A DNA stretch of 64,000 bases from Candidatus Poribacteria bacterium (GTDB lineage Bacteria > Poribacteria > WGA-4E > WGA-3G). The position numbers were made by a program, and so were the translations under genes. A model generated the notes under the pieces. That model saw only the letters and a list, made by a program, of their open reading frames with translations. It made no database searches and was not told where the DNA came from. Where the stretch lies: NCBI GenBank assembly GCA_022824835.1, contig JAJDZB010000001.1:23318-87317 (forward strand), in the 5' to 3' direction. Positions 20,989-38,311 of the stretch are shown piece after piece. The first letter of the stretch is position 1, and every line of letters starts with the position of its first letter.

Positions 20989-21003
20989 ATAGTTCCCAAT
21001 TCA

Positions 21004-21030
21004 GTAGGCGGGTATTGAAAACCCGCCTAT
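21004..21030. terminator. GTAG-started hairpin between convergent genes (REP-like, probable terminator) at the defence island edge
   Basis: TAGGCGGGT-attgaaa-ACCCGCCTA, perfect 9-bp stem. Confidence 0.6.
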
Positions 21031-24000
21031 TATCGTGGCTTCTTCGGTTGAATTCCTACTTTCTCAAACATTAAATCTAAGTACGATTTCTCATCGTTGA
21101 GACACTTACTTGTAGAACCATTCTCTTTCTTTTGATGCCAGTCTAATCGAAGAATGTTATACGCTAACATATTTTCGGTAATCCAGTCAAAATTTTCTTG
21201 TCTTCCTAACTCGGAACTATCCCGTAATAGAAGAAATGAATCAAGTTGAAATTTCTTGTCCTGTTTTGTCTCTAATTGCTTCTCAAGCAAGAGAAGTGTC
21301 TGGTCTTCGGTTTTTTGTGCAATTTTAACCTTCGGATGATCTTTATAATTAGCCTTTGACCCACCTATAATCCCTCGCTCACCTTTGGGATCGATAAATA
21401 TAATGTGAGTAATATCACTTTCATTGTCAATAGTCCACAGAACAAAATCCGGGAAAAAACTACCCGCATCACTTTCCAAGAATATCCCAATTTTCTGAAC
21501 GTTTCGCATTAGGTAAAACTCATATCTTTCATTTCGTAGGTAGTTTAACTTAATGTATTCTGTTAAGTCTTCAACAAACTTCTTTTCACCTGCATTCAAT
21601 CTATCTGGTGAGACTTTCACATCATTATAATCAGATTCCACATCGTCTTGATGCCGTATCAACGGATTGTAAATGTGCCGATGTCCTGTTTGTAAGACAT
21701 GAGTCAATTCTCTCTGAATTGGTGCTTCAGGGTTTATTCTTAGTGCCTTTGTTTTATCGTGTTCATTTTCAGATTCCTTAATCTTTGCAAGAAATGCTTC
21801 ATATTCACTGCTATCCTTAAATTCTTTTGTTACTGTATACTCATAGATAAAATCATCTCTAATTAACGGTTCATAAAGATAATTTCTGCGATTGATGTGA
21901 GCGTTGATTCGGTTCCGAAGTTGACGAATGACATCTATTACGATTTGCCGATTAAGTCCGTCTGTCCACGCAATTGGATCTGAACCTGGTTCATGGTAAC
22001 GAATTTCATCCACAAGTGAAAGAAGATCTGAAATAGTTGGTTTACAGTCTGTTTTGTTATACAGTTGCAGCTGATTTGTTTCTTCCTCGCGATGTATCAC
22101 AGTAGCAAGTTTCGCCCTATTCAGATAACAAGAATACTTTTCAATATTCTGCTCCAAGTCCCAGTAGACATTTGGAGAATCTCGTTCCTTATCCGTTCGG
22201 TAATCACATTTCAGCGGACGCCACTTATTGATAGTGCCAGATTTTTCATTTTCACCGTCTTGATATTTATAGTGGATTTTATCCCCGTTGAGAAAAACCC
22301 GCTTGAATCCACTGCCTGCGGTGGTACGTTGTTTAAAGATTGACAATTTCTTGCTGTATTGTTCAAAACTAACAGAGGTGTTACCATCAACCTTAAAAAA
22401 CGTTGGGTTTACTTTAATTGGAAAAGTGTGCAGCAATGGGACACCACCAGCATGCACTTCCTTAAGGAAGTGTTCAAGGTAACTTCGCTTTAGGCTGAAA
22501 ACGGTTAACGTCTCTAAACGACGAATATCGTTATTCTTATCTTCTTTTCGTAGATTGTAGTAATTCCTGTTGTGTTCAATATGCCGTCGTTTACCACAAC
22601 CTCCGATTCCATGTAACCTAACACCACGTCCGAATATCTGTATAATGAGGTTTCCTTTAGAAGTTCCCAAGTTAATTAGATCGATCACAGATAAACGATA
22701 GGAATTCCACCCTTCTGCGAATTTTCGGCTTCCTATCAGAACATTTATCGGACTTGAATCATTATCAAGATTCTCAAACTGTAGGTCTGGATCGACAATC
22801 GACTCCGTGAATGTATCAATTTTATTGTTATTTATGCTATTGAAGAAACTGATTGCATCGCCAACATTGATCATACCCCATTTTTTGCCATCTCCATAGG
22901 ATAAGAGTAGTTCACTATTGTTTTCTGGATTGCGCGCAACTACAAGTCTACCAATGATATCACCACCAAAGATTGACCTATAATTCTCCCGTTCTTCAGG
23001 ACGAAGTGCAGCAAAATAATCAAGAATCCTTTGGATGTCAGAAACTTCATCACCATCGCCTTCTTTTGATGGATTTTCGACTGTATGTCCCATAAACGCC
23101 ATCAGAGGACGATGCACAGTAAAGTCATCCTCAAGTTCTTTATCCTTCCTGACTCTGTCGAATGTGTGTAACTTCTCTTCCATCACGCGCAGACACTCGT
23201 CAAGATTGTCTTTAATTTCCCCTTCGGATTCATCAGCACCCACCTTATCTGCTTCTATTGGTTTAAAAAAGTGGTCTTTACCGTATCCATCTCCATAAAA
23301 TCGCGTGTAATCATAGCGATAGATGATAGCATTGCTGTATTCTTCTTTTAGTTCTTTTGCAATATTGTGGAAAGTAGCTGAATACTCAAACAGAAAGGAA
23401 TTACCGACATTGAGACGATTCTTCCGAAGTTCCCTGAATTTTCCAGCCTGACCAGTAGTCAACCCGATGTGAGCTTCGTCAACCAATATCAGCCTGCGGA
23501 CATCTCTATCATCAGGCATCTGGAAGTAATCTTCCTCTTTTTGTAATAGTCCCTGTGTTGTGTCAATTATGAGTTCAATCCGATTATTATAGGTTTCATT
23601 CAGTTGCCGCACATAAGGTTCTAACTCGCGTTCATGCTGTTTAATCAGATTAGCTAAAGGGGTTGTCAGGAAGATTTGAAGAATCGCACCATCAGATTTA
23701 CAAAAATGATGCAAATATTGGAGGATATTAAGATGCATGACAAGCGTTTTCCCGCTGCCTGTTGCCATCCAATATGCCAACATCCGTTGTTTCTCTTGTC
23801 CACCATTTAGGTCAAATCCAGTAGAAACTGTCTGATTTTCTAAGAATTGATCAGTGAAAAGCAACGCCAAAACTTGATAATAGCGGAGTTTGAATGTATT
23901 TCTTGTTAGATAGTTATAATCATCAAGGTATTTCTGGATCCGTTCCAAAGACTCAGAAGGCAACTGTAACATCTGTTCTGGATCATACAATTCAATGTCA

Positions 24001-24077
24001 CGCTTTATGCCGTCCCTACTAATGTCAATACCGTTTTCAGTTAATATCTTTGCTTCGTATTCTTGATATAGTGCCAT
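21030..24077 (-). CDS. res: Type III restriction endonuclease subunit (SF2 helicase plus PD-(D/E)xK nuclease)
   Basis: MATGSGKT, LVDEAH, EYSATF, GSRKFAEGWN, QIFGRGVR; C-terminal FFPDF...IDPKG. Confidence 0.88.
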   Translation of the reverse strand: MALYQEYEAKILTENGIDISRDGIKRDIELYDPEQMLQLPSESLERIQKYLDDYNYLTRNTFKLRYYQVLALLFTDQFLENQTVSTGFDLNGGQEKQRMLAYWMATGSGKTLVMHLNILQYLHHFCKSDGAILQIFLTTPLANLIKQHERELEPYVRQLNETYNNRIELIIDTTQGLLQKEEDYFQMPDDRDVRRLILVDEAHIGLTTGQAGKFRELRKNRLNVGNSFLFEYSATFHNIAKELKEEYSNAIIYRYDYTRFYGDGYGKDHFFKPIEADKVGADESEGEIKDNLDECLRVMEEKLHTFDRVRKDKELEDDFTVHRPLMAFMGHTVENPSKEGDGDEVSDIQRILDYFAALRPEERENYRSIFGGDIIGRLVVARNPENNSELLLSYGDGKKWGMINVGDAISFFNSINNNKIDTFTESIVDPDLQFENLDNDSSPINVLIGSRKFAEGWNSYRLSVIDLINLGTSKGNLIIQIFGRGVRLHGIGGCGKRRHIEHNRNYYNLRKEDKNNDIRRLETLTVFSLKRSYLEHFLKEVHAGGVPLLHTFPIKVNPTFFKVDGNTSVSFEQYSKKLSIFKQRTTAGSGFKRVFLNGDKIHYKYQDGENEKSGTINKWRPLKCDYRTDKERDSPNVYWDLEQNIEKYSCYLNRAKLATVIHREEETNQLQLYNKTDCKPTISDLLSLVDEIRYHEPGSDPIAWTDGLNRQIVIDVIRQLRNRINAHINRRNYLYEPLIRDDFIYEYTVTKEFKDSSEYEAFLAKIKESENEHDKTKALRINPEAPIQRELTHVLQTGHRHIYNPLIRHQDDVESDYNDVKVSPDRLNAGEKKFVEDLTEYIKLNYLRNERYEFYLMRNVQKIGIFLESDAGSFFPDFVLWTIDNESDITHIIFIDPKGERGIIGGSKANYKDHPKVKIAQKTEDQTLLLLEKQLETKQDKKFQLDSFLLLRDSSELGRQENFDWITENMLAYNILRLDWHQKKENGSTSKCLNDEKSYLDLMFEKVGIQPKKPR

Positions 24078-24089
24078 AGGTAGTTCCCA

Positions 24090-27000
24090 TTAGGTTTCAA
24101 TAGTATCCCACACTGGTCCTGAATCAAAATCCTTTATCGTGATGATATGGATTTCTTTTAGCCCCGAACCTTCGCGTAGCCTGATCTGATTTACATCATA
24201 ATTTACATCTATTTGAGTAACACCCTTAATCCGTTCATCATTCAAAATCTTCAATAATTCATCAGTATCATCTACACCTTCAGTCACATTTCTGAACACA
24301 ACCGCTCGTTTGTTACTTCTGATGACTCGATAGACCTGATTACCAAAATCAAACCGCAGCCGTCGCTGAATTGACAGTCCTTTCATATAGCAGTAGGTTT
24401 CCAACACGTCAACATAACCATCTGTGCTGTCCTTACCGTAGGTGATTCTATTTGAAAACGGCTTACGTATATCCATCATCAACCGTATTTCCTGTTCCTC
24501 TGGACGATAGAGATATTTCACATGTAATCCTAATTCCCCATCATCATTCTGCAGTATAGTTGTGAGGTTATTGAGGATATCCTCATACTGTTCCAAACGT
24601 TGATATTTGATAATGCCGATAGTACCATCAATTTTCTTTTTATCTGGTTTGCCATCTTTCCAATTTTCAGAGTACATCACACGACGAATCCGCTCTTTCA
24701 AAGTGCTTTCAAAATAATCACCCATCTCAACAAGGATAAATTTACGTTTTCTGTTATCATCTTTGTTGAGTTTTCTCTTTTTATTTCTGTTGAGATTTAG
24801 TATAGCATGTCCTGTTGTTCCACTTCCTGCAAAAAAGTCAAGTGTGATCCCCTTCCCATCTGGTGTTACTGCCCACACCAGATTTTCATACAATCCTACA
24901 GGATGACAAAAAGGAAATGTTAATCCTAAATTTTCAATTTGTTGTTTACCTGTTTCCCCTGAAGCTATAAGTGACGATTGTTCAATTATAATATGGTCTT
25001 TCAAATAATATTTTCGTTGAGGTTGTGTTCTTTCATCAATGTCAAAATGAATCTCATTGTTATCAAGCAAACTCTGCATGAATTCGGGTCTATTACCCCA
25101 TCCGTTATGAGGAACTGGACAGGGTTTAAGTGTTTGTGGATGATCTAAAGGTATAAAATACTTGGGATCCTTACGAAGTTCTGGGGCTCCCATGTGAACT
25201 TTTCGATATACAGTTCCATTCTCATCCAGATTTGAATATGCCTTGTCACCTTTACTGAAATCAGTTGAAGAAGTTATCCAATTTATGAATTCTTCACAAC
25301 ATTCTTCTGTTGGACTCTTATGTTTTTTTATTAGCGTTGCTGCTTTCTTGAGAATTGCCTCTCTGTTAAAATTATAGTACTTAAGTTTAATATTTCCTTT
25401 TGATTGACAAAATATGTATTCATGTTGACTCGCAATGCGATTTGCACCACTAACTGGATTTCTTTTATCCCAAACGATAGTTCCTTGATTTTGCATCCGC
25501 ATGGTATCAAATACTTGAAACAGGTTTTCATACTCGTTTTCGTCAATGTGACAAAGGATGCAGCTATCCTGTGACATTAACTGCTCTGCAAGAGATAAGC
25601 GATTATCCATCATTGTTAGCCAACTTGAATGCTGGTAATCGTTTTTGTATAGAAACCCGCTTGTGTTGGTGTTGTAAGGGGGATCTATGTGGACACATCT
25701 AATGGATCCTCGGAATTTTTCCATTAATAAATCCAGTGCCTGAAAGTTCTCACTATTGAGTAGCAAACCATCAGTTTGTGATTCTAAATCATTAAAAAGT
25801 GAAAGGATTCTGTCAACGAAGGTATCATCAAAATACCTTGTATCTAACGGTAATGTCGGATATACTCCATCGAGTAACGGTAATTGTTCTCTAATATCAA
25901 TATCAAAGGTCTCTAGCCAGTCATCAAGCTGTGCTCTGTTCTGCAATATTTTAGAATAGGTTTCCTTACGAAGTTCAGGATCATTTTTTGTAACCTCAGC
26001 TATTTTGCCTACAGAGATAAGATAATCTGTAGAGATAACTTTTTTCTTCATCAGGAAAAGCTGCTTCTGGAACGTTTCCACAGCAACGAGCAGCGCAATT
26101 ACCTCGTCAGTGACGTTACGGAATGCTGTTGCAATGGCGAATGCAGGATTTTCAGGACTGGGGTTCAAAAGCGTATCTAAATCGCAGAGGATAGTGTTCT
26201 GGATATAACGGCGTTGCTCGGTTTTCAGGAATCTATCCAAGTCCTTGTGTATAAAATAGTCGGAATCCATTCCTACAAAGAAAGTATTCAGGTTCTTATC
26301 AAAAGTTTGAAACCTTTTTACAGTTGGACTTAGTTCAAGTTTCTGCTTCCGTTCATCTCTGTTTTTCCCAAGTCCTCTAAAATCTGAATGACTTGCCAAC
26401 TTCTCAGCATATTTATCCAAGCCAAGCCGTAACGACTTAATGCCTTGAAATTTTCCATCGCTTACTTTGTTATAGGTATCCGCTAAATCCTTAAAGATAG
26501 GTTTTCCAAGTTCTTCACCCCTCTTGGGTTCTTCATGCAAATAGATATCAACATCGTCAGTCATGTCAAAAATCTGTGCATTCATCTTACGGTATATCTC
26601 AACTTTTGGTGTTGAAGCATCTGCCAAATGAAATATAACACGCCATGTCGGTTCTGCATCATCAGATTTAGGATCTTCAATTCTATCGAATCGGTAGTGT
26701 TTAAAATCTTCTTGATTACTGTTCTGTGCAACAGCAGAGGTAGATTTGCCTTCTAACCGATATTCAATCCGTTTGCCCTCAACTTCAAAGGTAACGCTAT
26801 TAAAGCCTGTTGCTGTTTTGACGTAGTAACTATCGCGACATTTCCAATGGAAAAGTATATCTGTCCCGTTATAGTCTGTCTCGTCTGGATAGTCTACCTT
26901 ATACTGTGCAGTGCTTCTGTCGTTATACCCAAAGTCCCCATCACGGTAGTAACTTTCGAAGAAATTGTGGATGTGATTGTAGAGACGGTATGCCAGTTGT

Positions 27001-27377
27001 GCTTTGAGCTGTTCTGGGTCTGTTTCTAAGGGAACAATAAGGTGTTTCTGTTCCTTATAGGTTAGAAAATCTATAAGTGGAAGTTGGTGATCTGAAATAT
27101 TGTGTAAGTATCCTTTTTCTGTTGTGCCACCCTCTTTTTCAATATATTCCTTAACTTCTCTAAGTTGACTATCATAAAGTTGTTCTGTAACTTCTGACAA
27201 TGCCTTTTCAACAATAGATGTCAACTTTTCATCAATGAACAGATTTATCTCATCGCGTTTGATTCTTAGTATGCGAAATATTCCGAAATCAAGATCGGAA
27301 TTTGAGAATTGGAACATTTCTCGGAGTTTTTCGCGAAGATTGTTTAGTGCTTCAGTTGTTCGGTTGATTTCTGACAT
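24090..27377 (-). CDS. mod: Type III restriction-modification adenine methyltransferase (long Mod subunit)
   Basis: DLDFGIFRI N-terminus, IDPPYNT (motif IV) before LDFFAGSGTTG (motif I), i.e. beta class; 12 bp upstream of res. Confidence 0.9.
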   Translation of the reverse strand: MSEINRTTEALNNLREKLREMFQFSNSDLDFGIFRILRIKRDEINLFIDEKLTSIVEKALSEVTEQLYDSQLREVKEYIEKEGGTTEKGYLHNISDHQLPLIDFLTYKEQKHLIVPLETDPEQLKAQLAYRLYNHIHNFFESYYRDGDFGYNDRSTAQYKVDYPDETDYNGTDILFHWKCRDSYYVKTATGFNSVTFEVEGKRIEYRLEGKSTSAVAQNSNQEDFKHYRFDRIEDPKSDDAEPTWRVIFHLADASTPKVEIYRKMNAQIFDMTDDVDIYLHEEPKRGEELGKPIFKDLADTYNKVSDGKFQGIKSLRLGLDKYAEKLASHSDFRGLGKNRDERKQKLELSPTVKRFQTFDKNLNTFFVGMDSDYFIHKDLDRFLKTEQRRYIQNTILCDLDTLLNPSPENPAFAIATAFRNVTDEVIALLVAVETFQKQLFLMKKKVISTDYLISVGKIAEVTKNDPELRKETYSKILQNRAQLDDWLETFDIDIREQLPLLDGVYPTLPLDTRYFDDTFVDRILSLFNDLESQTDGLLLNSENFQALDLLMEKFRGSIRCVHIDPPYNTNTSGFLYKNDYQHSSWLTMMDNRLSLAEQLMSQDSCILCHIDENEYENLFQVFDTMRMQNQGTIVWDKRNPVSGANRIASQHEYIFCQSKGNIKLKYYNFNREAILKKAATLIKKHKSPTEECCEEFINWITSSTDFSKGDKAYSNLDENGTVYRKVHMGAPELRKDPKYFIPLDHPQTLKPCPVPHNGWGNRPEFMQSLLDNNEIHFDIDERTQPQRKYYLKDHIIIEQSSLIASGETGKQQIENLGLTFPFCHPVGLYENLVWAVTPDGKGITLDFFAGSGTTGHAILNLNRNKKRKLNKDDNRKRKFILVEMGDYFESTLKERIRRVMYSENWKDGKPDKKKIDGTIGIIKYQRLEQYEDILNNLTTILQNDDGELGLHVKYLYRPEEQEIRLMMDIRKPFSNRITYGKDSTDGYVDVLETYCYMKGLSIQRRLRFDFGNQVYRVIRSNKRAVVFRNVTEGVDDTDELLKILNDERIKGVTQIDVNYDVNQIRLREGSGLKEIHIITIKDFDSGPVWDTIET

Positions 27378-27612
27378 GGAATTATTTTGCCTTCCAATCT
27401 GATTACTCTATACTTCATCGGTCATATTAGATAGTCTTAATTTGGTACGTCCCACAGTTTTGTCCTTCTTCAATTCGGTCTTGAATTTTCCCTTCTGCTT
27501 CTTCTCTACTCACAAGCGGCTTTTGTAGCGTTCTCTTTCATAGTTCCTCCGCCATTTCACTATTTGTCAATTAAGTACCTAAGCATCACAGTTTGTATAA
27601 CGATCTTATGAA

Positions 27613-29097
27613 TTACATGTAATAACGGAAAGATGGATGAGGTATTTCATTTTCTCCTACTTCTGCCATAATACCACCCACCCGTCGAGAAAAGAATAGC
27701 GTTACAGGGTGGGAACTACTCATGCTTGCAGTATTCCAATTCATTCGGGCAAGTCCTAATATATCTGAGGCGACCTGATGCATGTCAACATCATCATTAC
27801 TTATTAGTCTTACTGGAGCAGGAATGTGAGGTCCAGGATATGTCTGCCATTCAGGCATATAACCTGTAGTGAATAGATATGTGGCTTCCTTATTGACTGT
27901 ACATAGGGTGCCCTTTCTCGGAGGATATGCTCCATAAGTTAATAATCGAAATTGTGTCGGCATAATGTTAATTAATTCAACTACCGGAATATCACGAAAA
28001 CCATGTTGAAATCCTTCTTGTTCTGAGTCGTCAAACCTTGATGTCTTATGAAGGACAATACGTTTCGGCTTACCACCTGTCTGTTCGCTGTACTCTTGAA
28101 GTACCTGGCTGGCAAGTTTAGCTGCTTGATCTTCCGTTAGGTGCACATTCCATCCCTGTTTTTCATCTCTGGGAATAGGTTCACCGCGAAGCGCAAAACC
28201 TTCACCACGGCTTGAAAAAGCTTGTGCTAAGCTTGAATAGACAAGATGTTGTGATGGCGTTCGTAAGTGATGAAAACTGATACCGACAAAGCAGGTTTCT
28301 GGTCCCTCAGATTTAAAACGCCAAGGTATTCCTCCCGCTTTGTAATAGAGTGCTACGCTCATGTTCCATGCACGTGTAGCCGCTTCTTGACCCGTCTCCA
28401 AATCTTCAAACAATCTCTCAGTTCCAATTTGAATTGGCATTTCATATTTCATCGTTTGGGCTTTTAAAGCACGTCTAAAATCACGATTCAGCAAGTCTTC
28501 TACGGTTTCTTCCATGCCTTCAAATAAAGAAAGTTGTTCAGACTCACGTTCAGCCTTACGTTTCTTGATGGATTTACGTTGCTGAGAAGTCAAACTACTT
28601 GAAATGCTCCAACATGTTTGGACGACCTCATTAGGCAAACAACATATTACTATATCAGGACGAGTTTCAGGGCAATTTGCCAATTCATCTATACCTTCAA
28701 TATAAAGATTCAATACATCCTCAAAACGGCTTTTTGGGTTTTTTATTACTAATGCTCTTTCAAGTTTTTTGTTGTCAATTGTTTTTACCCACTGGTTTCT
28801 TAACTCAAGTTTAGCGTGAAAAATATCTTGAAAACCAGGAAAAACTTGGTATTGTGGAGAGTCTTTAATCTCGGTTGGAATTACCTTGCGACATCTTTCA
28901 ATCCATTTATAACCTTTATTTATAATTTCTGTGTTGCCAACGAAACCAACGCGGACATCTCTTTTATGAGCGGCCCCAAAACGGCGGTCAAAGGGACCTG
29001 CTTCTGTTAGACCTACTTTTGGATCTATAAATGTCCCTGGGGCACCAAATTCAATCTCTGGTGTAGGTAATTGGTTGATTTCCATCTGAATTAACAT
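27613..29097 (-). CDS. Short prokaryotic Argonaute (MID-PIWI only, catalytically inactive)
   Basis: DFRRALKA..M...PIQI (MID), ALYYKAGGIPWR, CFVGISF and IVLHKT (slicer Asp residues absent), YPPRKGT, LARMNWN, PVTL.FSRRVG, C-terminal FRYYM. 494 aa, too short for N/PAZ lobes. Confidence 0.93.
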   Translation of the reverse strand: MLIQMEINQLPTPEIEFGAPGTFIDPKVGLTEAGPFDRRFGAAHKRDVRVGFVGNTEIINKGYKWIERCRKVIPTEIKDSPQYQVFPGFQDIFHAKLELRNQWVKTIDNKKLERALVIKNPKSRFEDVLNLYIEGIDELANCPETRPDIVICCLPNEVVQTCWSISSSLTSQQRKSIKKRKAERESEQLSLFEGMEETVEDLLNRDFRRALKAQTMKYEMPIQIGTERLFEDLETGQEAATRAWNMSVALYYKAGGIPWRFKSEGPETCFVGISFHHLRTPSQHLVYSSLAQAFSSRGEGFALRGEPIPRDEKQGWNVHLTEDQAAKLASQVLQEYSEQTGGKPKRIVLHKTSRFDDSEQEGFQHGFRDIPVVELINIMPTQFRLLTYGAYPPRKGTLCTVNKEATYLFTTGYMPEWQTYPGPHIPAPVRLISNDDVDMHQVASDILGLARMNWNTASMSSSHPVTLFFSRRVGGIMAEVGENEIPHPSFRYYM

Positions 29098-31834
29098 TTT
29101 CTTCCTCTGCTAATTGTGAGATCGCCTCTGAGATTTCTGACTCTAACTGTGCCAATTCGATTGTATCCAATTTCTCAAGTTCTCCAATTCCCCTTGCTTC
29201 ATCTAATTCAATCACAGGAGCAACAACCGCTGACAAGCTATTTCTGATAAGGATTTGATGACCGTTGCTCTTATGTATTTTGTTTACTGAAACTGTATCC
29301 GATTTTATGTCCGGGGCCCCGGTGTCAAGTGCAAAAGTGCCCTGTTTTCCGCCTGAAATCACCCATGCCCAGAATACAAGATCGTTGTGTACCACATTGT
29401 TGTAATCGTGACTCTGGAGACGGGTGGAATATTTATTGGTCAAATCACCAGGCAAATATGATGCTTTTCCATCAGTAGTAAAAACATAACTTGGAAGTAA
29501 GAATAGGGTCCAGACATTTCCAAAACGTTCAAACCGGAACCAAAATGATTTGTGCTCCCAATAGTTGTTTTTCTTTTTTACCACTTTTCGGGTAGCACGA
29601 CGGACACGCGCCTTGTAGGTGACTTTTCGAAAGTTCTCATCTGTTTTAGGAAAATATGCACGTTTTCGATCTTTGTCTATCCATAGACCTTGTGCTTCAA
29701 GGTGTCTGAAAAAACATGTATTGAGTAGCCAGACAAAAGGCTTTTCATCATAAGTGTTGATAAATTCTTCAATAGTCATCTTTCCTATATCGTTAGTGTC
29801 AATCGCAGTGTAAAGTGGATTAGCAGAAGTTGACAGATTCTCAAAAGTAAAAAGTCTTTCTGCATAAGTCATGAATGGCGGCAGCCAATCTGATTCTGTC
29901 CTTTCCCACACATCCTTTGCTATTCGGGCAGTGGTCCCAGCGTGCCAAACAACATCTGGAAGATTAACTACTTCAAGAAGATTGCTTGCGTAGCGGGTGA
30001 AGTGATTACTGCTGGAGGCAGTTCCAGTAATTGTATCTACTGCTTCAGGGCGGCGGGAAATTGTTATTTCAAAAGCAGTATTGCCATCAATCGGTCCAAA
30101 ATTTACTTCATTTTTGTTTTCATCACATTTCTCCCAAACGTCCGGTAATCCGGAACCTGCTCTTTCCATATCACCTGTTCCATAGAATATGTCTGACACA
30201 ACAGGATTCCGATATCCTTGAATACCACGTGCTCCACCTTTGATTCTTGTTTCAAACGTGTCTCTTATCTCATTATGAGGTGTGGCCGTCATCTGCTCTA
30301 TAACGTCTTGAACTAATCCGCCTGGATTGCGGACACGGATACAATTCTGCTCAATTTCAACAATGATTGGCTCATCCTTTTCATAGTCACGGTGAACGAG
30401 TGCGTTAACTACTATCTCTCTCAAGGCATCTGGAGGGTAGGGATATACAGATTTTGAGTGTTGTCCTCCTTTTAAGAGGAATGATCGATTAATGCGAGAA
30501 AGCAGCGCATAAATCCCGTCAAGTTGATACCAAAGGTTACCCTCAATTACTTCTTCTATTTGATTGACGGAAGTATCAAAAATGCTTTTGAACCAATCAG
30601 GATCTCCAATTATGCGTACGATGACTTTAGCGGTTTGGATATGGTACTGCGGAGTCTCAGCAAAAAGCAAGTAACCTCCCACCGTTGGAAAAATACTCTC
30701 TTCTTCTGTAGGCGAAGCAAGATCTAACTCACATAGCATGCGAATAATCCAATCGTCGTTGACAGTTGGCGGTACTCGTATATCCACCCTGCTGCAGTAC
30801 TGAGATAGACGGACTCTCATTGTTGGCCAATCAAAATCATCCAAGGCAGCTTCGGTAAGTTTCTGGAAATCAAAAGGAAGTAATGATAATTCTTCAGACA
30901 CAGTAGGAATTTGCGGTTGATAATCCGTGTCCTGTTGCCCCACATGTTGCCATAGGGTATTCATCACTTCATCAAATCCATTGATAGAAACGATCTGAAA
31001 GTTTGTTTGGATCTCACTAGCGAGTGCCTGGACTAACTGAGGAAGATTGTCAGAATCACCCTCTATATAATTTCGCGAGCACCAATAAATCCCATGACGG
31101 TAACCATCTGCAGCCGCGGCGTTATCAATAAGAAGATGTCGCATTATAGAAGGCTCTGCTCCTCGATATCCTATGACAATCAATGGATGATCTCTCAAAA
31201 GCGGGATCAATCTTTCAACAAGATTTGAATTAAGTTCTGCATTTACTTCGGCAAGAGTGTTTTTGTCAGTGTAATGTTGGACAGAACCATGTAAGTAAAT
31301 TAATTGCGGACGTTGAGAACTTGTTGATATAATGGAAAAGTCAGACGGTGTTTGGACAACATCAATATAATGAAGGCGACGGTTCGCTCTACACAAGTTT
31401 AATAAAACTGCATCAAAGTTTGTTGTAAGAACAGTATGAATGCGTTTCTGTTCCATCAACTTCACCATATATTCATATCCTTCACCCACTGGTACTTGTG
31501 TATCTAAAATGTCCTCAAAGAACAACCTTCGCGATTCACTTGGTTGTAGTATATTCTCTACAGCAAAAGGAAAATTATCAGCTGCACCCAAATCCTTACG
31601 ATACCAATTCTGTTTTTCTAACCACGGATACCAGTCACTTCGCCGAATACGTGGGTCTTCAGTAGAAAGATTATTCTCTTTACAGTATCCCCATCTTGCT
31701 ATTTTTTCAATCAATTCGCCTGCAAGAGGAATACCCGAGCTGTAGGAAGCACCAGCACCGAGTAAGAAGATTGGATCTGGTCCATCTTTAATGAGTGAAC
31801 ATAAGTGTCCAATAGTTTTTGTTTGAAATTGCAA
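29051..31834 (-). CDS. Short-pAgo effector: SIR2 NADase, HATPase_c_4 (RecG-C-terminal/GHKL-like) and APAZ fusion
   Basis: SIR2: FLLGAGAS..SGIP, TTNFD, YLHGS, VIGYRG. HATPase_c_4: YP..ALREIVVNALVHRDY, NPGGL, YRNP, MERAGSG. APAZ: SNLL.V..LP, WLLN, RAYF, YWEH.SF.FRF, PSYVFTTDG, YNN..HNDL.FW. Overlaps the pAgo start. Confidence 0.85.
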   Translation of the reverse strand: MQFQTKTIGHLCSLIKDGPDPIFLLGAGASYSSGIPLAGELIEKIARWGYCKENNLSTEDPRIRRSDWYPWLEKQNWYRKDLGAADNFPFAVENILQPSESRRLFFEDILDTQVPVGEGYEYMVKLMEQKRIHTVLTTNFDAVLLNLCRANRRLHYIDVVQTPSDFSIISTSSQRPQLIYLHGSVQHYTDKNTLAEVNAELNSNLVERLIPLLRDHPLIVIGYRGAEPSIMRHLLIDNAAAADGYRHGIYWCSRNYIEGDSDNLPQLVQALASEIQTNFQIVSINGFDEVMNTLWQHVGQQDTDYQPQIPTVSEELSLLPFDFQKLTEAALDDFDWPTMRVRLSQYCSRVDIRVPPTVNDDWIIRMLCELDLASPTEEESIFPTVGGYLLFAETPQYHIQTAKVIVRIIGDPDWFKSIFDTSVNQIEEVIEGNLWYQLDGIYALLSRINRSFLLKGGQHSKSVYPYPPDALREIVVNALVHRDYEKDEPIIVEIEQNCIRVRNPGGLVQDVIEQMTATPHNEIRDTFETRIKGGARGIQGYRNPVVSDIFYGTGDMERAGSGLPDVWEKCDENKNEVNFGPIDGNTAFEITISRRPEAVDTITGTASSSNHFTRYASNLLEVVNLPDVVWHAGTTARIAKDVWERTESDWLPPFMTYAERLFTFENLSTSANPLYTAIDTNDIGKMTIEEFINTYDEKPFVWLLNTCFFRHLEAQGLWIDKDRKRAYFPKTDENFRKVTYKARVRRATRKVVKKKNNYWEHKSFWFRFERFGNVWTLFLLPSYVFTTDGKASYLPGDLTNKYSTRLQSHDYNNVVHNDLVFWAWVISGGKQGTFALDTGAPDIKSDTVSVNKIHKSNGHQILIRNSLSAVVAPVIELDEARGIGELEKLDTIELAQLESEISEAISQLAEEENVNSDGNQPITYTRD

Positions 31835-31982
31835 ATTACAACCCTATTATTCACCAAGACAAAATGAAGGAAGGTCTTTAAAGATCAAATCTTGTCCTGT
31901 AATTCTATTTCGTTATACAAGTACTAAGTACAATTATGACATTAACTTGAGGAAAAATCAACTTGAAAATTAAGAGATTAAT

Positions 31983-33911
31983 TCAAATGAAAATTTTATA
32001 TGTCCGCAACCCTGAAACGGGTCCAATAATTGCCCAGATACTACCAATAACATAATCACCTAATATTAATCCTAAGAACAAAGGGGCAACTCGACGATGT
32101 AAGCGCAAACCTCCATGTCGTAAGATCAAGTATTTCAGCAACCAAGCGACGAAGAAGGCAAACCAGAAGTAATCCATCGCAAAACTTATCGCAAGCGCAT
32201 AACCGGCAGGATGGAAGGGCCACCACAGAAAATGCATCCGCATATACATCATGACAAATGTTAATAACGCACCGATACCCATAAATCCTATGCCGATAAG
32301 GTTCGGTTCTGAAGGATTGTGCAACCATCTCTGCAGTCGTCCAAACGATTCTCTACCCACCCATCCCTTAAATCCACCCGCTTTGGCAACCGCACCGTTT
32401 CGAAATGTGATGTCAAGATTTGCCCAAAATGTGGCTACTATGCCTACGATAATCGCTATCAACATCGCTAACCAAAGCCGTCTGTTCCCCATACCTGTAG
32501 ATTCTGCCAGTTTGAAGGCTTCAATCTGATTAGGCATCGGATGATTTCTATATCCACGATTAAACCAATAGAAAAGCGAGAGAATCGTGAGACTACTGGT
32601 GTCAAAATGACGTGTTCCGCCAACCATTGCCATTATGTCATGCGGATTTACATAGTATATTTCATGCGGTGTGCCAAGTTCCGCACGAACCCGTGTAATG
32701 GCGAAAGAGAGTAGAAAATAGATACCGAAAAATATACTGGCAATCCACAACGTCATTCCCGCTATGTTCGCAAAAATACCCAAGGCAATGAGAGAACCGA
32801 TAATACCTAACAGTGCGGATCGATATGACATGGGTTCATCCTTATCATCAAGTTGCGAATTGAAACCAATTGCTTTTTTAAAGACCTCTTTCAGATGTCG
32901 GCGCGTAACCCATATCGCCAATAGAAATAACGCAACCCATGCTCCATAAGCTTGTTCATTTAATGCTGGAAAATAACGTGTGCCAAGTGCTGCTGCTATG
33001 ACAAACTCAGCTAATCGGACAACAAAGAAAAACCAACAGGAGAATGATAGATCCAAGGGTAAGAAAAATGCTAAACCGACTGCAAACGGATAGACAGAGA
33101 TGCGTGTACCTCGAATAGCACTCCAAGGTCGTTCAGTGAAGATATTTTGAAAAACAGCAGTCCTTTTGATATACGGTATCTCTGGAAACTGCGGAAACAG
33201 ATAGTGAATACCGTTTATCAATCCAATGGTAACAGCGATGCTAAATCCGATCCACATCATCCGATTTTTCATCAGACGAGTTCCACTCTCCTCTGATAGT
33301 CGGAGTGGAAGTTGAATGATAGGATATGCTAACTTCTCCTGTTCTGTCCATCGCTTACGCACCAACGTATTGATGCATAACATCATAAACATCATAATCA
33401 GGAAGAATAACCCCCAAAAGAACAACGGTTTTAACCAGACACTAAAGTTATGTTCTGTATAGAAACTGGACTCCCCTTCATAGAATCCTTGCAAACTTTG
33501 CGGATCAGAGATGGTTAACCAAGATGGAAGATAGCGAAAAAAGAGTGTTTGCCATTCATTTTCTTCAGTTGCAAAACGGAAAGGATGTGCAATACTGCCG
33601 AACATATTCTGCATCGTATCATGACCGGCAAACGTACAAGAAATCGCTACCATGATGTATACCGTGAGTAACTCACCCTGTCGCAACATGTGCTTAGGTG
33701 ATATACCTCTGATAACGAAGTTCGCTACGACACACAGAAACATGATGAAGACAGGTTGGATGAAAAGGGGTAAACATGAACCGTCAAGTGAATAATACTT
33801 CACTTCAACTATTGTCATCCAATAGACATTGACAGGAATGAGCAACACGCCGATGATTAACGAACGGATCGTAATACCGGTTGATTTAATGCTACTTTGA
33901 TCCGTCTTCAT
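31983..33911 (-). CDS. Polytopic membrane protein, DUF6785/DUF6784-like (putative peptide transporter)
   Basis: Many TM helices, RKRW..QEKL.YPI.QLP, WWPFHPAGYA, LFLGLILGD. Confidence 0.7.
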   Translation of the reverse strand: MKTDQSSIKSTGITIRSLIIGVLLIPVNVYWMTIVEVKYYSLDGSCLPLFIQPVFIMFLCVVANFVIRGISPKHMLRQGELLTVYIMVAISCTFAGHDTMQNMFGSIAHPFRFATEENEWQTLFFRYLPSWLTISDPQSLQGFYEGESSFYTEHNFSVWLKPLFFWGLFFLIMMFMMLCINTLVRKRWTEQEKLAYPIIQLPLRLSEESGTRLMKNRMMWIGFSIAVTIGLINGIHYLFPQFPEIPYIKRTAVFQNIFTERPWSAIRGTRISVYPFAVGLAFFLPLDLSFSCWFFFVVRLAEFVIAAALGTRYFPALNEQAYGAWVALFLLAIWVTRRHLKEVFKKAIGFNSQLDDKDEPMSYRSALLGIIGSLIALGIFANIAGMTLWIASIFFGIYFLLSFAITRVRAELGTPHEIYYVNPHDIMAMVGGTRHFDTSSLTILSLFYWFNRGYRNHPMPNQIEAFKLAESTGMGNRRLWLAMLIAIIVGIVATFWANLDITFRNGAVAKAGGFKGWVGRESFGRLQRWLHNPSEPNLIGIGFMGIGALLTFVMMYMRMHFLWWPFHPAGYALAISFAMDYFWFAFFVAWLLKYLILRHGGLRLHRRVAPLFLGLILGDYVIGSIWAIIGPVSGLRTYKIFI

Positions 33912-33937
33912 AGTGATTGTGGATTGTCTGTTAACCG

Positions 33938-35818
33938 CTAACGGTAGGTTTGAACGATTTCTGTGATGACAGAACGTCTATTCTTCCAGTTAAGACGGGC
34001 TGGTGGAATAAGATATATACCATCAATCGGAATTGTATCCTGATTTCGTATCTCTTTCACAAGGTCTAAGGTCAGTTGCATGCCGAGTTCACTTCCAGCC
34101 GTATCCCCTAAGTCTTGAAATTTGTCAACGATGAACTGCGGTATATATAGACCTAAATTGTCACGTAGGTAGGAGGCACTACGAAAACTTGTAAGCGGAA
34201 GAATCCCGTAAAGGACTTTTATATTTAGGTGTTGTATTGCCTTTTGTGAACGTTCAATATCTTCATAGGTCCAGACAGGTTGTGTATATGCGAATTTTGC
34301 ACCTGCTGTAACCTTATTGCTTAAGTGTTTTATGTGAGGATCAAGATTCTCAGCGATGGTGAAGCCGCCGCCGTAGTAGAATCCACATGGATCTCCGATG
34401 GATGACCCATCAGCGAGTACACCTTGATTTAGACGATCTATCAGTTTCATCAGTTGCACTGCTCCGCGCACATCGGGCACGAGACTTGCGGCTTCGTACG
34501 GTCCGGCTTTGGGATGGTCACCTGACAGTGCGACAATCCCACGTATCCCTAATGCCTCTGCCTCTAACAGGTGCGATTGCATGCTGATAAGATTACGTGA
34601 ACGTGTTGTCCAATGGATAAGCGTTGGAATGTGTGTTGCTTGCTGTAAACGAAATGCGGTACCAACTGCACCTATGTTAACTGCCGCCCCTGAATTATCT
34701 GTCACATCAAATAGGTCAACACCGATAGATGCCAGCACGCGCGCCTCTTTCAACAAGGCACGCAATTGTGGGAATGTATTGGCGCGTGTTTCAACACTTA
34801 CAATCCTTTCGCGAGTTTCAAATACCTGTTGTATAGGGTTTTCTCTTTGTGTTTTGCTGGTAGGTGAGCTCTTCGGCAGTACAAATATACGGGGGAGACG
34901 TCTGATCGGTTTGCTTCTGCCGACAGCTTGACGGATTCTGGCTATAAATTCTGGGGTGGTGCCGCAGCATCCCCCAATCATATTAGCACCAAGATTGATC
35001 AACTTTTGAACGTAATCTGTAAAGACGTCGGCGTTTACTGTGTATGAAACAGCAATTTCTCCCTGTTCAACTCTCGGATTTCCAGCATTCGGTTGCACGA
35101 CAAGTGGGACGTTTATGACAGGTGCAAGCAATTCCATAGCTTGAACAAGGTCGTGAGGACCTCTGCAGTTAACACCGACAGCAGTTGCTCCCAGTTGTTC
35201 CAATTCTTGAGCGAACACGCGAACATCTATACCGGCACCAACTGTACCGCCTGAAATACCGCTAATCTCAATAACAACAGGAATGCCGTAGGTCAATGCT
35301 TGTTTCGTTGCAATCTGTGCTTGTTTTGTTGAAACGAAAGTCTCTAATATAAGCAGATCAACCCCCGCATCAACAAGGGGATCCATCTGTTCCTGAAATA
35401 GTTTACGGATTGTCTTCGTTGATGGTTCAACGGCTATGTCGTTTGTATCTTGAGAACCGAATGGGATCTGACCAACTGATCCTGCGATATAACATGTGTC
35501 TGATGTTACGGATTGTACTAATAATACCCCAGCACGGTTTATCTCATCAACTTTATCAGCAAGACCGTGGATTGAGAGTGCTTTCCGATTTGCTTGATAT
35601 GTATTCGTCTGGATGACATCTGCACCAGCATTCACATAAGCCTGATGGATGTCCTTGACTGTATCTGCATGTTCATTTGAAATATTACATGCATCTATAC
35701 AGTGTAGATGTGCCTTTATGCGTTGACGCAGTTCTGTACCGAGCGCACCATCACACACCAAGATTCGTTGTGCTAATGCTTCAATAAATGGAATTTTCGA
35801 TGGTGGTTTTGTATCCAT
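33938..35818 (-). CDS. Bifunctional homocysteine S-methyltransferase / methylenetetrahydrofolate reductase (YitJ-like)
   Basis: CDGALGT, AGADVIQTNTY, GVNC, PNAG, IGGCCGTTP followed by an MTHFR-like domain (DVTD, RSRNL, SGD, TQP). Confidence 0.9.
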   Translation of the reverse strand: MDTKPPSKIPFIEALAQRILVCDGALGTELRQRIKAHLHCIDACNISNEHADTVKDIHQAYVNAGADVIQTNTYQANRKALSIHGLADKVDEINRAGVLLVQSVTSDTCYIAGSVGQIPFGSQDTNDIAVEPSTKTIRKLFQEQMDPLVDAGVDLLILETFVSTKQAQIATKQALTYGIPVVIEISGISGGTVGAGIDVRVFAQELEQLGATAVGVNCRGPHDLVQAMELLAPVINVPLVVQPNAGNPRVEQGEIAVSYTVNADVFTDYVQKLINLGANMIGGCCGTTPEFIARIRQAVGRSKPIRRLPRIFVLPKSSPTSKTQRENPIQQVFETRERIVSVETRANTFPQLRALLKEARVLASIGVDLFDVTDNSGAAVNIGAVGTAFRLQQATHIPTLIHWTTRSRNLISMQSHLLEAEALGIRGIVALSGDHPKAGPYEAASLVPDVRGAVQLMKLIDRLNQGVLADGSSIGDPCGFYYGGGFTIAENLDPHIKHLSNKVTAGAKFAYTQPVWTYEDIERSQKAIQHLNIKVLYGILPLTSFRSASYLRDNLGLYIPQFIVDKFQDLGDTAGSELGMQLTLDLVKEIRNQDTIPIDGIYLIPPARLNWKNRRSVITEIVQTYR

Positions 35819-35856
35819 GTAGTCTGATTCTGTGAATTTAACTTCTATAGGTTTAC

Positions 35857-35884
35857 CCCCGTGTCAACATAAGTAAACACGGGG
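35857..35884. terminator. GC-rich hairpin between the monooxygenase-like gene and the yitJ-like gene
   Basis: CCCCGTGT...ACACGGGG 8-bp stem; no clear poly-T tail. Confidence 0.35.
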
Positions 35885-35931
35885 ATAATCTGTTGAGTCA
35901 AGAATGGAAATGTGATGTCTAAATGAGACAT

Positions 35932-37563
35932 TTATTGTATTATATCTCCCGCCTTCTCAACAGGAATATAATAATAACCGAAGATAATACACATCTCATC
36001 TTCAGAAGTTAAACCGAATTGAAGCGGTTTATTCGTATCATAGTTATTATGTGTACATTCAAAAGTCAATCCATCATCTGAACTCAATATAATAGGTGAT
36101 GGGAAAAGTGTGATAGGTGCATCGTCATAAGCGATGCTACGGTGTAACAATTCTCCTGTTGATCTCTGAAATATTTCAAATAGTTCACCGTGTCTATGCA
36201 TGTGAGATGTAAGTAGGAAGACGTGCAATTCCGTATCCGGATCGTGTCCACGGTGCTGAAGTTCATACTCAACATACCAGGTCATTTTAGACACACGGGT
36301 TAAACCTGGTGGAACGTTTATTGCTCTATTTGAAACGAATATCTCTAAGGCTTCATACTTTACTTCTTCTTTTGGAATCGTGTAGATATTGACATAAGTT
36401 TCACCGATCAGTACCTCATCCCCGAGAAGATTGATATAGTGTGAGTTTAGGTCGTAGACTGTGTTTCCTGGGAGTCGTAATCCAACACCCTCTGGAAATT
36501 CAAAGAGTGTATCATCCGTTTGGGTTCCAACGACGAACAGGCGATCACTGCCGAAATTACCGAGAGCCTGTGGATCGAGTGGATCAAGTTCTCTGAATTG
36601 CTCCTCTGGGTTCACACCGATACTTGTGTCAACACCTATATTCTGAATACCTTTCTCTATACCCTCTTCAGTGAGACGGTATATGATGAAGTGATGACTT
36701 CCTGATGGATAGAAAATCTCAACTCTGTTAATATAGATATCATCCTCTATTAGTTCACCATTTTCATCTCTGATCTGTGTTGCATAGAATACTTCCCGTT
36801 CTGTTCCTGGTTCTACTTTAAATTGTGGCAAAACGAGTTGGTAACCTTCGCCGGTAGGGGGTGGGGGTGGTGGATTAAATACCTCTTCTGGGTCCCTGAG
36901 AACACCGAGATCCCCAATTCCAGCTACTTTTCCAGTTTGCGGTGCTCCTGCTTCGATCCATGTGCGGATAGCATTAATCTTCGCTTGATGCAGAGGACCT
37001 GTTCCGAATGGCATCCGAGAACCGAAGTTTCGATTCTCAGGTCCCATCAATTTCGTCAAGAGAAAACTATTTTCAGGGTTACCGGGATCGATAAGTTTCA
37101 TACCAGCTGCAGCTGCGGCAGCATTTCGTGGAACACGATCAACCAAATCAGCATGGGATTGTCCATAAATAAGATTCAGGTCTGCTGAGTTCTGAGGGGG
37201 TGCATGGCAAGCACTATTTGCACAACTTTTGTCAAATATGTTATCTTGTATATCGTGATAAGTTGAGTTATCTCCCTGTTCTGTTTCACCAAATCTGTTT
37301 ACGACTCTCCTGAGATCCAATACGTCAACTGTACCATCACGGTTGACATCCGGATTCTGGTCTGATGTACGATCACCTGGTTGTCCTAATACAGTGGCAA
37401 CTAACACGAGATCTCTTATGTCAACTGTTCCATCATTGTTGACATCTTCTAATAGTGTAGACCCTGCATTGTGACCAAATGCTGTACCAATTGCTGTAAA
37501 TGACAGACACACGATTAAGGTGAGTAGAAGTGTTAAAAAAACTATGTTTTTGTAAATTTCCAT
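35932..37563 (-). CDS. Secreted protein: dockerin-like, cytochrome c-like (CX4CH) and copper type II ascorbate-dependent monooxygenase (PHM/DBH-like) domains
   Basis: DVNNDGTVDIRDL / DVNRDGTVDVLDL; CANSACH...PGNPENSFL...RMP...WIEAGA; copper ligands SHH, NSHY, SHMH and EDEMC. Confidence 0.78.
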   Translation of the reverse strand: MEIYKNIVFLTLLLTLIVCLSFTAIGTAFGHNAGSTLLEDVNNDGTVDIRDLVLVATVLGQPGDRTSDQNPDVNRDGTVDVLDLRRVVNRFGETEQGDNSTYHDIQDNIFDKSCANSACHAPPQNSADLNLIYGQSHADLVDRVPRNAAAAAAGMKLIDPGNPENSFLLTKLMGPENRNFGSRMPFGTGPLHQAKINAIRTWIEAGAPQTGKVAGIGDLGVLRDPEEVFNPPPPPPTGEGYQLVLPQFKVEPGTEREVFYATQIRDENGELIEDDIYINRVEIFYPSGSHHFIIYRLTEEGIEKGIQNIGVDTSIGVNPEEQFRELDPLDPQALGNFGSDRLFVVGTQTDDTLFEFPEGVGLRLPGNTVYDLNSHYINLLGDEVLIGETYVNIYTIPKEEVKYEALEIFVSNRAINVPPGLTRVSKMTWYVEYELQHRGHDPDTELHVFLLTSHMHRHGELFEIFQRSTGELLHRSIAYDDAPITLFPSPIILSSDDGLTFECTHNNYDTNKPLQFGLTSEDEMCIIFGYYYIPVEKAGDIIQ

Positions 37564-37594
37564 TATGTCATAACCTCCATTTTATTTAATACGA

Positions 37595-38311
37595 TCATTC
37601 TTCGTTAATTTCTTTGAATAACTTAGATTTTGTTGTGAACCTATATTTTAGCAATGTCCAAGCAGCAAAAATACCATCAGACCAAAAACGCAACTTTTTA
37701 CCCTCCTTTTTCGTGCGAGGAAAATAGGAAACTGGTATTTCGTGTATATCAAAACCTGCTCTTAGTAACTTCGCTGTTACTTCGGGACAGAACTCAAAAC
37801 CTTCACAGGTCAAATTGAGTTTACGGATAACATCAGAAGAAAATGCTTTGTACCCTGTGGATTCATCAGTGATTTTTGAGCCGTATAGGATGTTGGTATA
37901 AACTGCCAGGATGCGATTCGCGATATAATTCTGAAGACTTGCGTTCTGTCTCCCCTTCAGAAACCTTGATCCGTATACGACTTCTGCGGTCTCTGTCTTT
38001 AAGGGACGCACCAATTCAACAATGTCACTCGGGCTGAGTTCCATATCCGCATCTTGGATGACAACTATTTTTCCTCTCACATAAGGTATTCCGCTTCGTA
38101 TTGCAGAACCTTTACCTTTATTCTTTTCACAATTGACTATTGTAATATCAGGTTCGTCGGCATACTGTTCCAGTATTGTAGGTGTCCTGTCGGTAGAGCC
38201 GTCATTGACAACGATAATCTGTTTCTCAAAAGGTAGAGATTGCACTGATTCAAGTACCTGTCCTATCGTTTGTTCTTCGTTGTACGCTGGTATAATCACA
38301 GATACTAACAT
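37595..38311 (-). CDS. Glycosyltransferase family 2 (DPM1-like polyprenol-phosphate glycosyltransferase)
   Basis: SVIIPAYNEE, VNDGSTD, NKGKG, IQDAD, VVYGSRF. Confidence 0.92.
   Translation of the reverse strand: MLVSVIIPAYNEEQTIGQVLESVQSLPFEKQIIVVNDGSTDRTPTILEQYADEPDITIVNCEKNKGKGSAIRSGIPYVRGKIVVIQDADMELSPSDIVELVRPLKTETAEVVYGSRFLKGRQNASLQNYIANRILAVYTNILYGSKITDESTGYKAFSSDVIRKLNLTCEGFEFCPEVTAKLLRAGFDIHEIPVSYFPRTKKEGKKLRFWSDGIFAAWTLLKYRFTTKSKLFKEINEE

Follow-up and report, generated by a model that had tools for sequence, protein, structure and literature searches.

A poribacterial short-Argonaute operon whose partner protein sets a predicted ATP-binding GHKL module between SIR2 and APAZ

A 64,000-nucleotide stretch of a Candidatus Poribacteria bacterium genome (assembly GCA_022824835.1, contig JAJDZB010000001.1, positions 23,318 to 87,317 of the forward strand; hereafter the window) encodes a short prokaryotic Argonaute (pAgo) together with a 927-residue partner protein. 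The partner belongs to a SIR2-GHKL-APAZ subtype that inserts a conserved GHKL module of the HATPase_c_4 family, predicted to bind ATP, between effector and sensor. On balance we favor reading the pair as an intact two-gene defense system of the S2B type in which activation of the SIR2 domain would depend on both guide and ATP. To our knowledge, all characterized short-Argonaute systems (SPARSA, SPARTA, SPARDA and SPARHA) carry their effector directly on APAZ and are activated by guide-target assembly alone. The subtype is widespread, occurring in Poribacteria, Acidobacteriota, Bacteroidota and Alphaproteobacteria, cultured strains included, and it has already been catalogued, which makes the pair a family member and not a new kind of system.

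Domain architecture of the gene pair

An earlier note, made from the sequence of the window without database searches, had described a 927-residue open reading frame (ORF) overlapping a 494-residue MID-PIWI ORF, and had proposed a partner of SIR2, HATPase_c_4 and APAZ domains next to a short pAgo. Both frames appear in the ORF listing of the window (Table 1), the partner gene with a TTG start and the pAgo gene with an ATG start, and the start of the pAgo gene overlaps the 3′ end of the partner gene by 47 nucleotides (29051-29097). Because of this overlap, the pAgo is presumably co-translated with its partner. The proposed anatomy is borne out by Pfam, PADLOC and hhalign: the partner consists of a SIR2 domain, a GHKL module of the type that follows AlbA_2 in classic HATPase_c_4 proteins, an APAZ domain and an acidic tail, in that order, and all of the SIR2 and middle-region motifs quoted in the note are present in the translation. 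PADLOC model PDLC02402 (Aga_SIR2-PNTD1-PNTD2) matches the partner end to end, with residues 9-909 aligned to model positions 3-872 of 876 at 1045 bits, and its sister model PDLC02418 (Aga_SIR2-Kinase-PNTD1-PNTD2) scores 747 bits. The E-values of these assignments lie well outside what chance would give.

The SIR2 motifs lie at residues 26-30 (GAGAS), 137-141 (TTNFD), 181-184 (LHGS) and 222-225 (GYRG). Pfam SIR2_2 matches residues 134-260 (E 8.5e-10; 39.3 bits with a cut-off of 24.5), and the SPARSA Sir2-APAZ chains 8jkz_A and 8in8_B, which hold the closest solved SIR2, align to residues 21-302 with TTNFD and the histidine matched. In an alignment of 58 close relatives, N139, D141 and H182 are invariant (58/58), as are G26, A27, S30, T137, T138, F140, G183, S184, G222, Y223, R224 and G225. 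We consider it likely that this SIR2 domain is an NADase effector, with depletion of nicotinamide adenine dinucleotide (NAD+) as the predicted output of the system.

A predicted ATP-binding module in the middle region

The earlier note had assigned the region between SIR2 and APAZ to the HATPase_c_4 family, an assignment with which both Pfam and profile comparison agree. HATPase_c_4 (PF13749) matches residues 488-575 of the full-length protein (E 1.4e-6, 28.7 bits), and the excised middle region scores 31.2 bits, both above the cut-off of 26. We used hhalign to compare a profile built from 58 members of the family (A1) with one built from 20 classic AlbA_2-HATPase_c_4 proteins (A2), and found that residues 315-598 correspond to template positions 133-383 with a probability of 99.92 and an E-value of 1.3e-34. 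The template is a classic protein of 459 residues with AlbA_2 at positions 14-122, and the shared homology starts at about position 133, past that domain. PDB chain 3lmm_A, another classic protein, aligns to residues 424-511. Based on these alignments, the middle module corresponds to the entire post-AlbA_2 part of the 'Schlatpase' supradomain, and SIR2 occupies the slot normally filled by AlbA_2 (the Schlafen nuclease), because homology to the classic proteins begins right after their AlbA_2. Scanning for AlbA_2 itself (PF04326) gave no match at E<=1 in residues 299-620 and none at E<=0.1 in the whole 927-residue protein. A copy hidden in residues 300-480 was considered and is ruled out by the Pfam scan and hhalign, which leave no room for one.

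The motifs of the module are LREIVVNALVHRDY at residues 471-484, NPGGL at 503-507, YRNP at 541-544 and ERAGSG at 557-562. They supply an N-box (E473/N477), a G1 box (NPGGL, 503-507), an RN pair (542-543) and a G2 box (GSG, 560-562). In the 58-sequence alignment the invariant positions are E473, N477, H481, R482, Y484, N503, G505, G506, R542, N543, G560, S561 and G562. We also aligned a broader set of 53 sequences, comprising the query and 52 listed matches of 800-1300 residues (representatives of clusters at 50% identity); this set includes P0233 and P0263, two DUF4062-HATPase_c_4 tandem proteins that are not family members. E473, N477, H481, G505, R542, N543 and G562 are kept in all 53, at identities down to about 30%, and the PGG of the G1 box (504-506) and the GSG of the G2 box are conserved in 53/53 or nearly so. 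In the lid, the segment that leads from the G1 box to the G2 box, about 20 residues (approximately 514-540) are inserted that classic members do not have, and several of them are invariant within the 58 sequences.

An S2B-like sensor

The 494-residue pAgo consists of MID and PIWI only, with neither an N nor a PAZ domain. It matches PADLOC model pAgo_I (PDLC02376, 455 positions) end to end at 502.6 bits, and it aligns end to end with short pAgo chains of 471-507 residues. Ranked against solved structures, it is closest to SPARHA (9om4_B, 3.6e-71; 243 bits), followed by SPARDA (9jsb_A, 2e-52; 181 bits), SPARTA (about 1e-48 to 1e-45; 158-173 bits) and SPARSA (8in8_C, 1.4e-21; 80 bits). The APAZ domain gives a similar picture: the PADLOC REase-APAZ model PDLC02415 (Aga_REase-PNTD1-PNTD2) matches residues 610-835 (E 5.5e-34), the SPARHA HNH-APAZ chain 9om4_A aligns to residues 616-830 of the single sequence and to positions 624-844 of the A1 profile (E 8e-24), and the SPARDA DREN-APAZ chains match the region with both the single sequence and the profile. 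The sensor formed by pAgo and APAZ is thus S2B-like by score ranking, and nearest to SPARHA and SPARDA, not to SPARSA.

Residues of the predicted guide pocket are shared with SPARHA. In the alignment to 9om4_B, pAgo D206, R208, K212, Q223 and I224 pair with SPARHA D178, R180, K184, Q195 and I196. According to the available text of the SPARHA paper, R180, K184 and the I196 backbone anchor the 5′ phosphate of the guide, and D178 and R180 contact its 5′ adenine (A1); Q223/Q195 is a conserved neighbor only and not a contact named for SPARHA. The C-terminal '...FRYYM' of the pAgo corresponds to '...FKYYM' in SPARHA. Its CFVGISFHH segment lines up with the corresponding segment in the pAgos of SPARHA and SPARDA, which are inactive, and of SPARTA. 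According to the available text of Koopal 2022, the DEDX tetrad is missing from all short pAgos, and on these two grounds the present pAgo may lack it as well. In the partner, the last 48 residues (880-927) contain 12 D/E and 3 K/R, and an acidic tail, counting 11-21 D/E among its final 45 residues, is kept in 11 of 11 loci from named genomes. Such C-terminal tails are described as typical of S2A and S2B and absent from S1 in the available text of Finocchio 2024.

The ATP site outlasts the SIR2 site among relatives

A word-index search recovered 1224 homologues of the partner at E<=1e-10 among 8000 scored candidates. Among the 120 homologues listed, coverage of the query is 91% or more for 119, with identities of 53-100%, and 72% for the remaining one, P0095 (671 residues). 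A HMMER search of 1.84 billion cluster representatives with the 322-residue middle region returned 1767 matches at E<=1e-3; of these, 117 reach E<=1e-10 and 47 reach E<=1e-30.

Six of 51 family sequences have an additional N-terminal extension of 85-378 residues ahead of SIR2, with PNP_UDP_1 in P0126, Metallophos in P0129, Trypsin_2 in P0159 and a PDC-M54A-like region in P0200. Five of these six (P0124, P0126, P0129, P0156 and P0159) have lost a catalytic residue of SIR2, through changes of LHGS to LYG or LFG and of TTNFD to TTSFD or LALFD, and none of the 51 sequences, extended or not, has lost the GHKL site. Among the sequences without an extension, N139 and H182 are both kept in 44 of 45; the single exception, P0133, begins inside SIR2, and its true N-terminus is not covered. 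Since the SIR2 site is lost in five of six extended proteins and the GHKL site never is, SIR2 chemistry seems to be selected when it is the sole effector and relaxed once another candidate effector has been added, and we infer that SIR2 and GHKL together also serve a non-catalytic purpose, in scaffolding or assembly, which is always retained.

Three shorter proteins, P0131 (662 residues), P0132 (623 residues) and P0136 (581 residues), are GHKL-APAZ forms with little or no SIR2; they could be fragments at contig ends or real split or SIR2-less forms. Other HATPase_c_4 fusions include the tandem DUF4062-HATPase_c_4 repeats of P0233 and P0263, and, in P0266/P0271, Metallophos-HATPase_c_4 and AlbA_2-HATPase_c_4 with a ParA/MinD-like AAA_31 ATPase. 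The window's own genome has eight PF13749 genes, and the other seven (at L001:1195-2682 on the minus strand and at loci L002-L007) comprise six with AlbA_2 + HATPase_c_4 and one with DUF4062 + HATPase_c_4 + Fic-like_C. Because DUF4062 is called an NADase domain ('NIR') in the available text of a September 2026 preprint, this last gene would be a second case, in the same genome, of an NADase-type domain in the AlbA_2 slot.

A two-condition mechanism and its alternatives

We propose that the heterodimer of APAZ and pAgo would load small RNA guides with a 5′ phosphate, and that the acidic tail would fill the nucleic-acid channel until complementary invader DNA binds, as in SPARTA. Target binding would lead to assembly of the complex, an active SIR2 domain, hydrolysis of NAD+ and abortive infection. 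The GHKL module would bind ATP and probably hydrolyze it, and its lid and N-terminal subdomain would dimerize or tetramerize the partner. Activation of SIR2 would then need two conditions, guide-target pairing and an ATP-bound assembly.

A model for the ATP-dependent step comes from RzAgo, described in a preprint (Kuzmenko et al., bioRxiv 10.64898/2026.05.29.728809). As reported in its available text, RzAgo binds ATP specifically through its PF13749 domain, which hydrolyzes the nucleotide to ADP and phosphate; E314 and N318 coordinate the gamma-phosphate and Mg, and the E314A variant loses hydrolysis and keeps binding. ATP binding leads to tetramerization, mostly via the GHKL domain and its lid, and the ATP-bound tetramer is the active form, with inactive guide-bound filaments competing against it. 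The same text mentions SLFN-APAZ partners of short pAgos, and the word SIR2 has 0 occurrences in it. For the system in the window, we see the chances as evenly balanced that the GHKL module drives oligomerization in an ATP-dependent manner. The ATP-dependent dimerization clamp or second checkpoint put forward in the earlier note is plausible, because the residues of the ATP site are strictly conserved and because RzAgo, with a domain of the same Pfam family, tetramerizes in response to ATP.

Several observations weigh against this interpretation. The logic of RzAgo, a long-B Argonaute whose effector is Schlafen, may not transfer; ATP could equally hold the SIR2-GHKL-APAZ system off. Sequence homology is the basis for predicting a Bergerat fold, a dimer interface and the geometry of SIR2 relative to GHKL. 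The HATPase_c_4 score of the whole protein is barely over the cut-off (28.7 versus 26 bits), and the general HATPase_c model is sub-threshold on the excised middle region (E 0.061). At the first position of the G1 box, 27 of the 53 sequences have N, 23 have S and 3 have T; none has Asp, the residue that canonical GHKL proteins have at this position. On the sensor side, SPARHA's pAgo contacts U2 through an Asp, and our alignment has a gap at that position. Among the extended relatives, the N-terminal extensions of P0124 and P0156 match no family, though SIR2 is degenerate in both, and P0200 retains an intact SIR2 site (equivalents of N139 and H182) despite its extension.

The main rival explanation turns ATP into a brake: ATP-bound GHKL would keep the SIR2 domains apart or inactive until target recognition, hydrolysis or a fall in ATP releases them. 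It fits the same conserved ATP-site residues, and the invariance of E473, which resembles a catalytic base, suggests that hydrolysis matters beyond binding (compare E314A of RzAgo). Oligomers can also inhibit, as the guide-bound filaments of RzAgo illustrate. We nevertheless consider a brake unlikely, as it is the ATP-bound tetramer of RzAgo that is active and the SIR2 of SPARSA is activated by tetramerization according to the available text of Cui 2024. A weaker rival, which we find improbable, treats GHKL as a structural spacer or scaffold that has lost its need for nucleotide and only positions SIR2 relative to APAZ and pAgo. The near-threshold Pfam score and a G1 box without Asp are in line with this, and, as expected of a scaffold, the module is retained in relatives with a catalytically degenerate SIR2; but the presence of E473, N477, G505, R542, N543 and G562 in 53/53 sequences is hard to explain without a ligand. 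Moreover, S or N at the G1 position is also found in classic HATPase_c_4 proteins (3lmm_A alignment; A2 consensus), and the RzAgo domain binds ATP.

The remaining alternatives, likewise weaker than the brake, concern what the two domains do rather than how they are coupled. SIR2 might not be the killing effector, acting instead as an NAD+- or nucleotide-binding regulator or as an ADP-ribosyl transferase with another output. The domain does persist in site-degenerate relatives, so a non-catalytic role exists too, but the catalytic Asn, Asp and His never vary in proteins that lack a further effector-like domain, and the domain's closest solved counterpart is the SPARSA NADase, and we regard this explanation as very improbable. 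Hardly credible, finally, is a GHKL protein kinase acting on the pAgo, on itself, or on a host or phage target. The idea draws on the word 'Kinase' in the name of PADLOC model PDLC02418 and on the resemblance of the RzAgo GHKL domain to human PDK4, a protein kinase, noted in the available text of the preprint (bioRxiv 10.64898/2026.05.29.728809). Yet the PADLOC label is a mere name and no test, Pfam scans of the 927-residue protein and of the middle region found no phospho-acceptor (DHp-type) domain, and RzAgo splits ATP into ADP and phosphate in the service of oligomerization.

Distribution and genomic context

We surveyed a collection with one genome per species and found 11 further loci with a full-length relative: five in Poribacteria, two in Blastocatellia, and one each in Pontibacter litorisediminis, Sphingobium mellinum, Shimia biformata and Sphingopyxis indica, the named groups being Poribacteria, Blastocatellia, Bacteroidota and Alphaproteobacteria. 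A pAgo gene lies immediately downstream of the partner gene in 11 of 11 loci and overlaps or abuts it in 10 of 11. The SIR2 and GHKL motifs are kept across the 11, with one locus (L019) lacking the first SIR2 motif through a frame break or truncation. Among 40 genomes related to that of the window, the partner gene is present in 7 of 24 genomes of the same genus and in 1 of 16 from other families of the order. Two same-genus genomes contain broken partner copies (G006:C1:3178089-3180832 and G007:C1:5893846-5896630), each in two pieces with an internal stop, and G007 additionally has an intact copy.

Directly downstream of the pAgo gene and on the same strand is a type III restriction-modification (R-M) pair (21030..27377; Table 1), which is defense-island context and not part of the Argonaute system. 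With tblastn at 1e-5, none of the window's Mod, Res, DUF6785 and MetH-like proteins matched anything in the 11 other loci, and a conserved third gene was rejected, as no neighbor in the window recurs there. Conservation of the pair with unconserved neighbors, a patchy distribution, broken copies and the adjoining type III R-M genes lead us to conclude that the pair behaves, as judged from its genomic context, as a mobile two-gene defense module. That it is a real defense system is, in our estimation, very probable.

Upstream of the partner gene, the minus strand encodes a DUF6785/DUF6784 protein of 642 residues (31983-33911) and a homocysteine S-methyltransferase-MTHFR fusion of 626 residues (33938-35818), followed farther upstream by a dockerin/EF-hand/Cu2_monoox_C protein (35932-37563); these look like housekeeping or unrelated genes. 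Rfam gave no match in 20000-40000, no tRNA was found in the window, and GC content is unremarkable. The promoter-like site listed in Table 1 is a consensus match only: the region contains 11 such sites compared to a shuffle mean of 13.2, so there is no excess, and terminator-like sites likewise show no excess over shuffles in the region.

Table 1. Coordinates (in the window) of the gene pair, its domains and adjoining features
Feature	Position	Strand	Basis
SIR2-GHKL-APAZ partner gene	29051..31834	minus	Stop codon 29051-29053; PDLC02402 end to end
SIR2 domain, residues ~9-300	30935..31810	minus	Pfam SIR2_2; SPARSA chain alignments; motif conservation
GHKL (HATPase_c_4) module, residues ~315-598	30041..30892	minus	hhalign; Pfam HATPase_c_4; 3lmm_A alignment; motif conservation
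APAZ domain, residues ~608-835	29330..30013	minus	PDLC02415; SPARHA 9om4_A; SPARDA DREN-APAZ chains
Acidic C-terminal tail, residues 880-927	29054..29197	minus	Residue counts; 11 named-genome loci
Short Argonaute (MID-PIWI, 494 residues)	27613..29097	minus	PADLOC pAgo_I; solved short pAgo chains
Predicted MID pocket (D206, R208, K212, Q223, I224)	28426..28482	minus	Alignment to SPARHA 9om4_B
Type III R-M Mod, 1095 residues	24090-27377	minus	PADLOC MTase_III PDLC03646, E 2e-150; Pfam N6_N4_Mtase
Type III R-M Res, 1015 residues	21030-24077	minus	PADLOC REase_III PDLC03654, E 1.2e-49; Pfam ResIII
Promoter-like TTGATT-17-CATAAT with TG, upstream of partner gene	31933..31961	minus	Consensus match only

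Implications

If ATP gates the SIR2 domain, a cofactor checkpoint would be added to Argonaute immunity, and the 2026 'Schlatpase' finding would reach beyond Schlafen nucleases to include NADases. Family members in which extra N-terminal domains accompany a dead SIR2 amount to a natural experiment on effector exchange on such a chassis. For annotation, the label 'Schlafen/RecG' is misleading for the SIR2-GHKL-APAZ family because only the ATPase half is present.

More speculatively, and with less than even confidence, HATPase_c_4 might be a general chassis for ATP-gated oligomerization onto which different N-terminal warheads are swapped. Those seen here are the Schlafen nuclease, SIR2, DUF4062/NIR and Metallophos, and PNP-like, trypsin-like and Metallophos domains are stacked ahead of a catalytically dead SIR2. 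In the SIR2-GHKL-APAZ proteins the chassis would form part of a two-key switch, in which invader DNA found by the guide and ATP-bound GHKL would both be required before NAD+ is destroyed. If true, this would be the first short pAgo system with an output that depends on a nucleotide cofactor.

Comparison with known systems

The subtype has been listed under several names. In the available text of the respective papers, the architecture is called 'SIR2_1 fused with Schlafen' with APAZ, og_40 (Ryazansky 2018); 'DHS-like-APAZ' in clade S2B, with the domain taken as a predicted NAD/FAD binder (Koopal 2022); and 'RecG/DHS-like' (Finocchio 2024). The earlier note had mentioned a 'RecG/DHS-like-APAZ' architecture as listed in short-pAgo surveys, and the last two papers contain it. 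The 2025 SPARHA paper, in its available text, speaks of 'additional uncharacterized effectors' in S2B. In line with the note, which knew of no experimental characterization, we found no experimental study of the SIR2-GHKL-APAZ subtype among the available main texts of the literature. The pair in the window shares with the catalogued S2B subtype its domain order, length, short-pAgo operon and acidic tail, and nothing essential differs. What we add, from alignments, is that the 'Schlafen/RecG' label covers the HATPase_c_4 half only, with SIR2 in the place of AlbA_2, that the predicted ATP site is never lost, and that SIR2 tends to be degenerate when extra N-terminal domains are present.

SPARSA (S1A/S1B; 8in8, 8jkz) has a homologous SIR2 with aligned catalytic motifs, and guide-dependent depletion of NAD+ would be expected in both. 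In SPARSA, however, SIR2 is joined directly to APAZ, whereas about 300 residues of linker and GHKL lie between them here, and the alignment to the S1B model PDLC02419 is confined to SIR2 (positions 9-309 of 558). The SPARSA pAgo is distant, being the weakest short-pAgo match (8in8_C, 1.4e-21 versus 3.6e-71 for SPARHA), and SPARSA and other S1 proteins are described in the available literature as lacking the acidic tail that is present here. SPARHA (HNH-APAZ, 9om4) and SPARDA (DREN-APAZ; 9jsb, 9qbp), both S2B, have the closest pAgo and APAZ, with the residues for the 5′ phosphate and A1 conserved. Their effectors differ in being nucleases that are fused directly to APAZ and activated in filaments, with neither SIR2 nor an ATP-binding module.

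The classic AlbA_2-HATPase_c_4(-wHTH) proteins (PDB 3lmm), which we take to be of the COG2865 type, are homologous over the whole post-AlbA_2 region; AlbA_2 is N-terminal in them and a wHTH often C-terminal, positions that SIR2 and APAZ hold here. The RzAgo 'Schlatpase' shares the PF13749 domain, an ExxxN pair (E314/N318 there, E473/N477 here), and an order in which the effector is N-terminal and the Argonaute sensor C-terminal to GHKL. RzAgo is a single-chain long-B pAgo whose Schlafen RNase cleaves tRNA, whereas the system described here combines SIR2, a sensor split into short pAgo and APAZ, and a lid insertion of about 20 residues.

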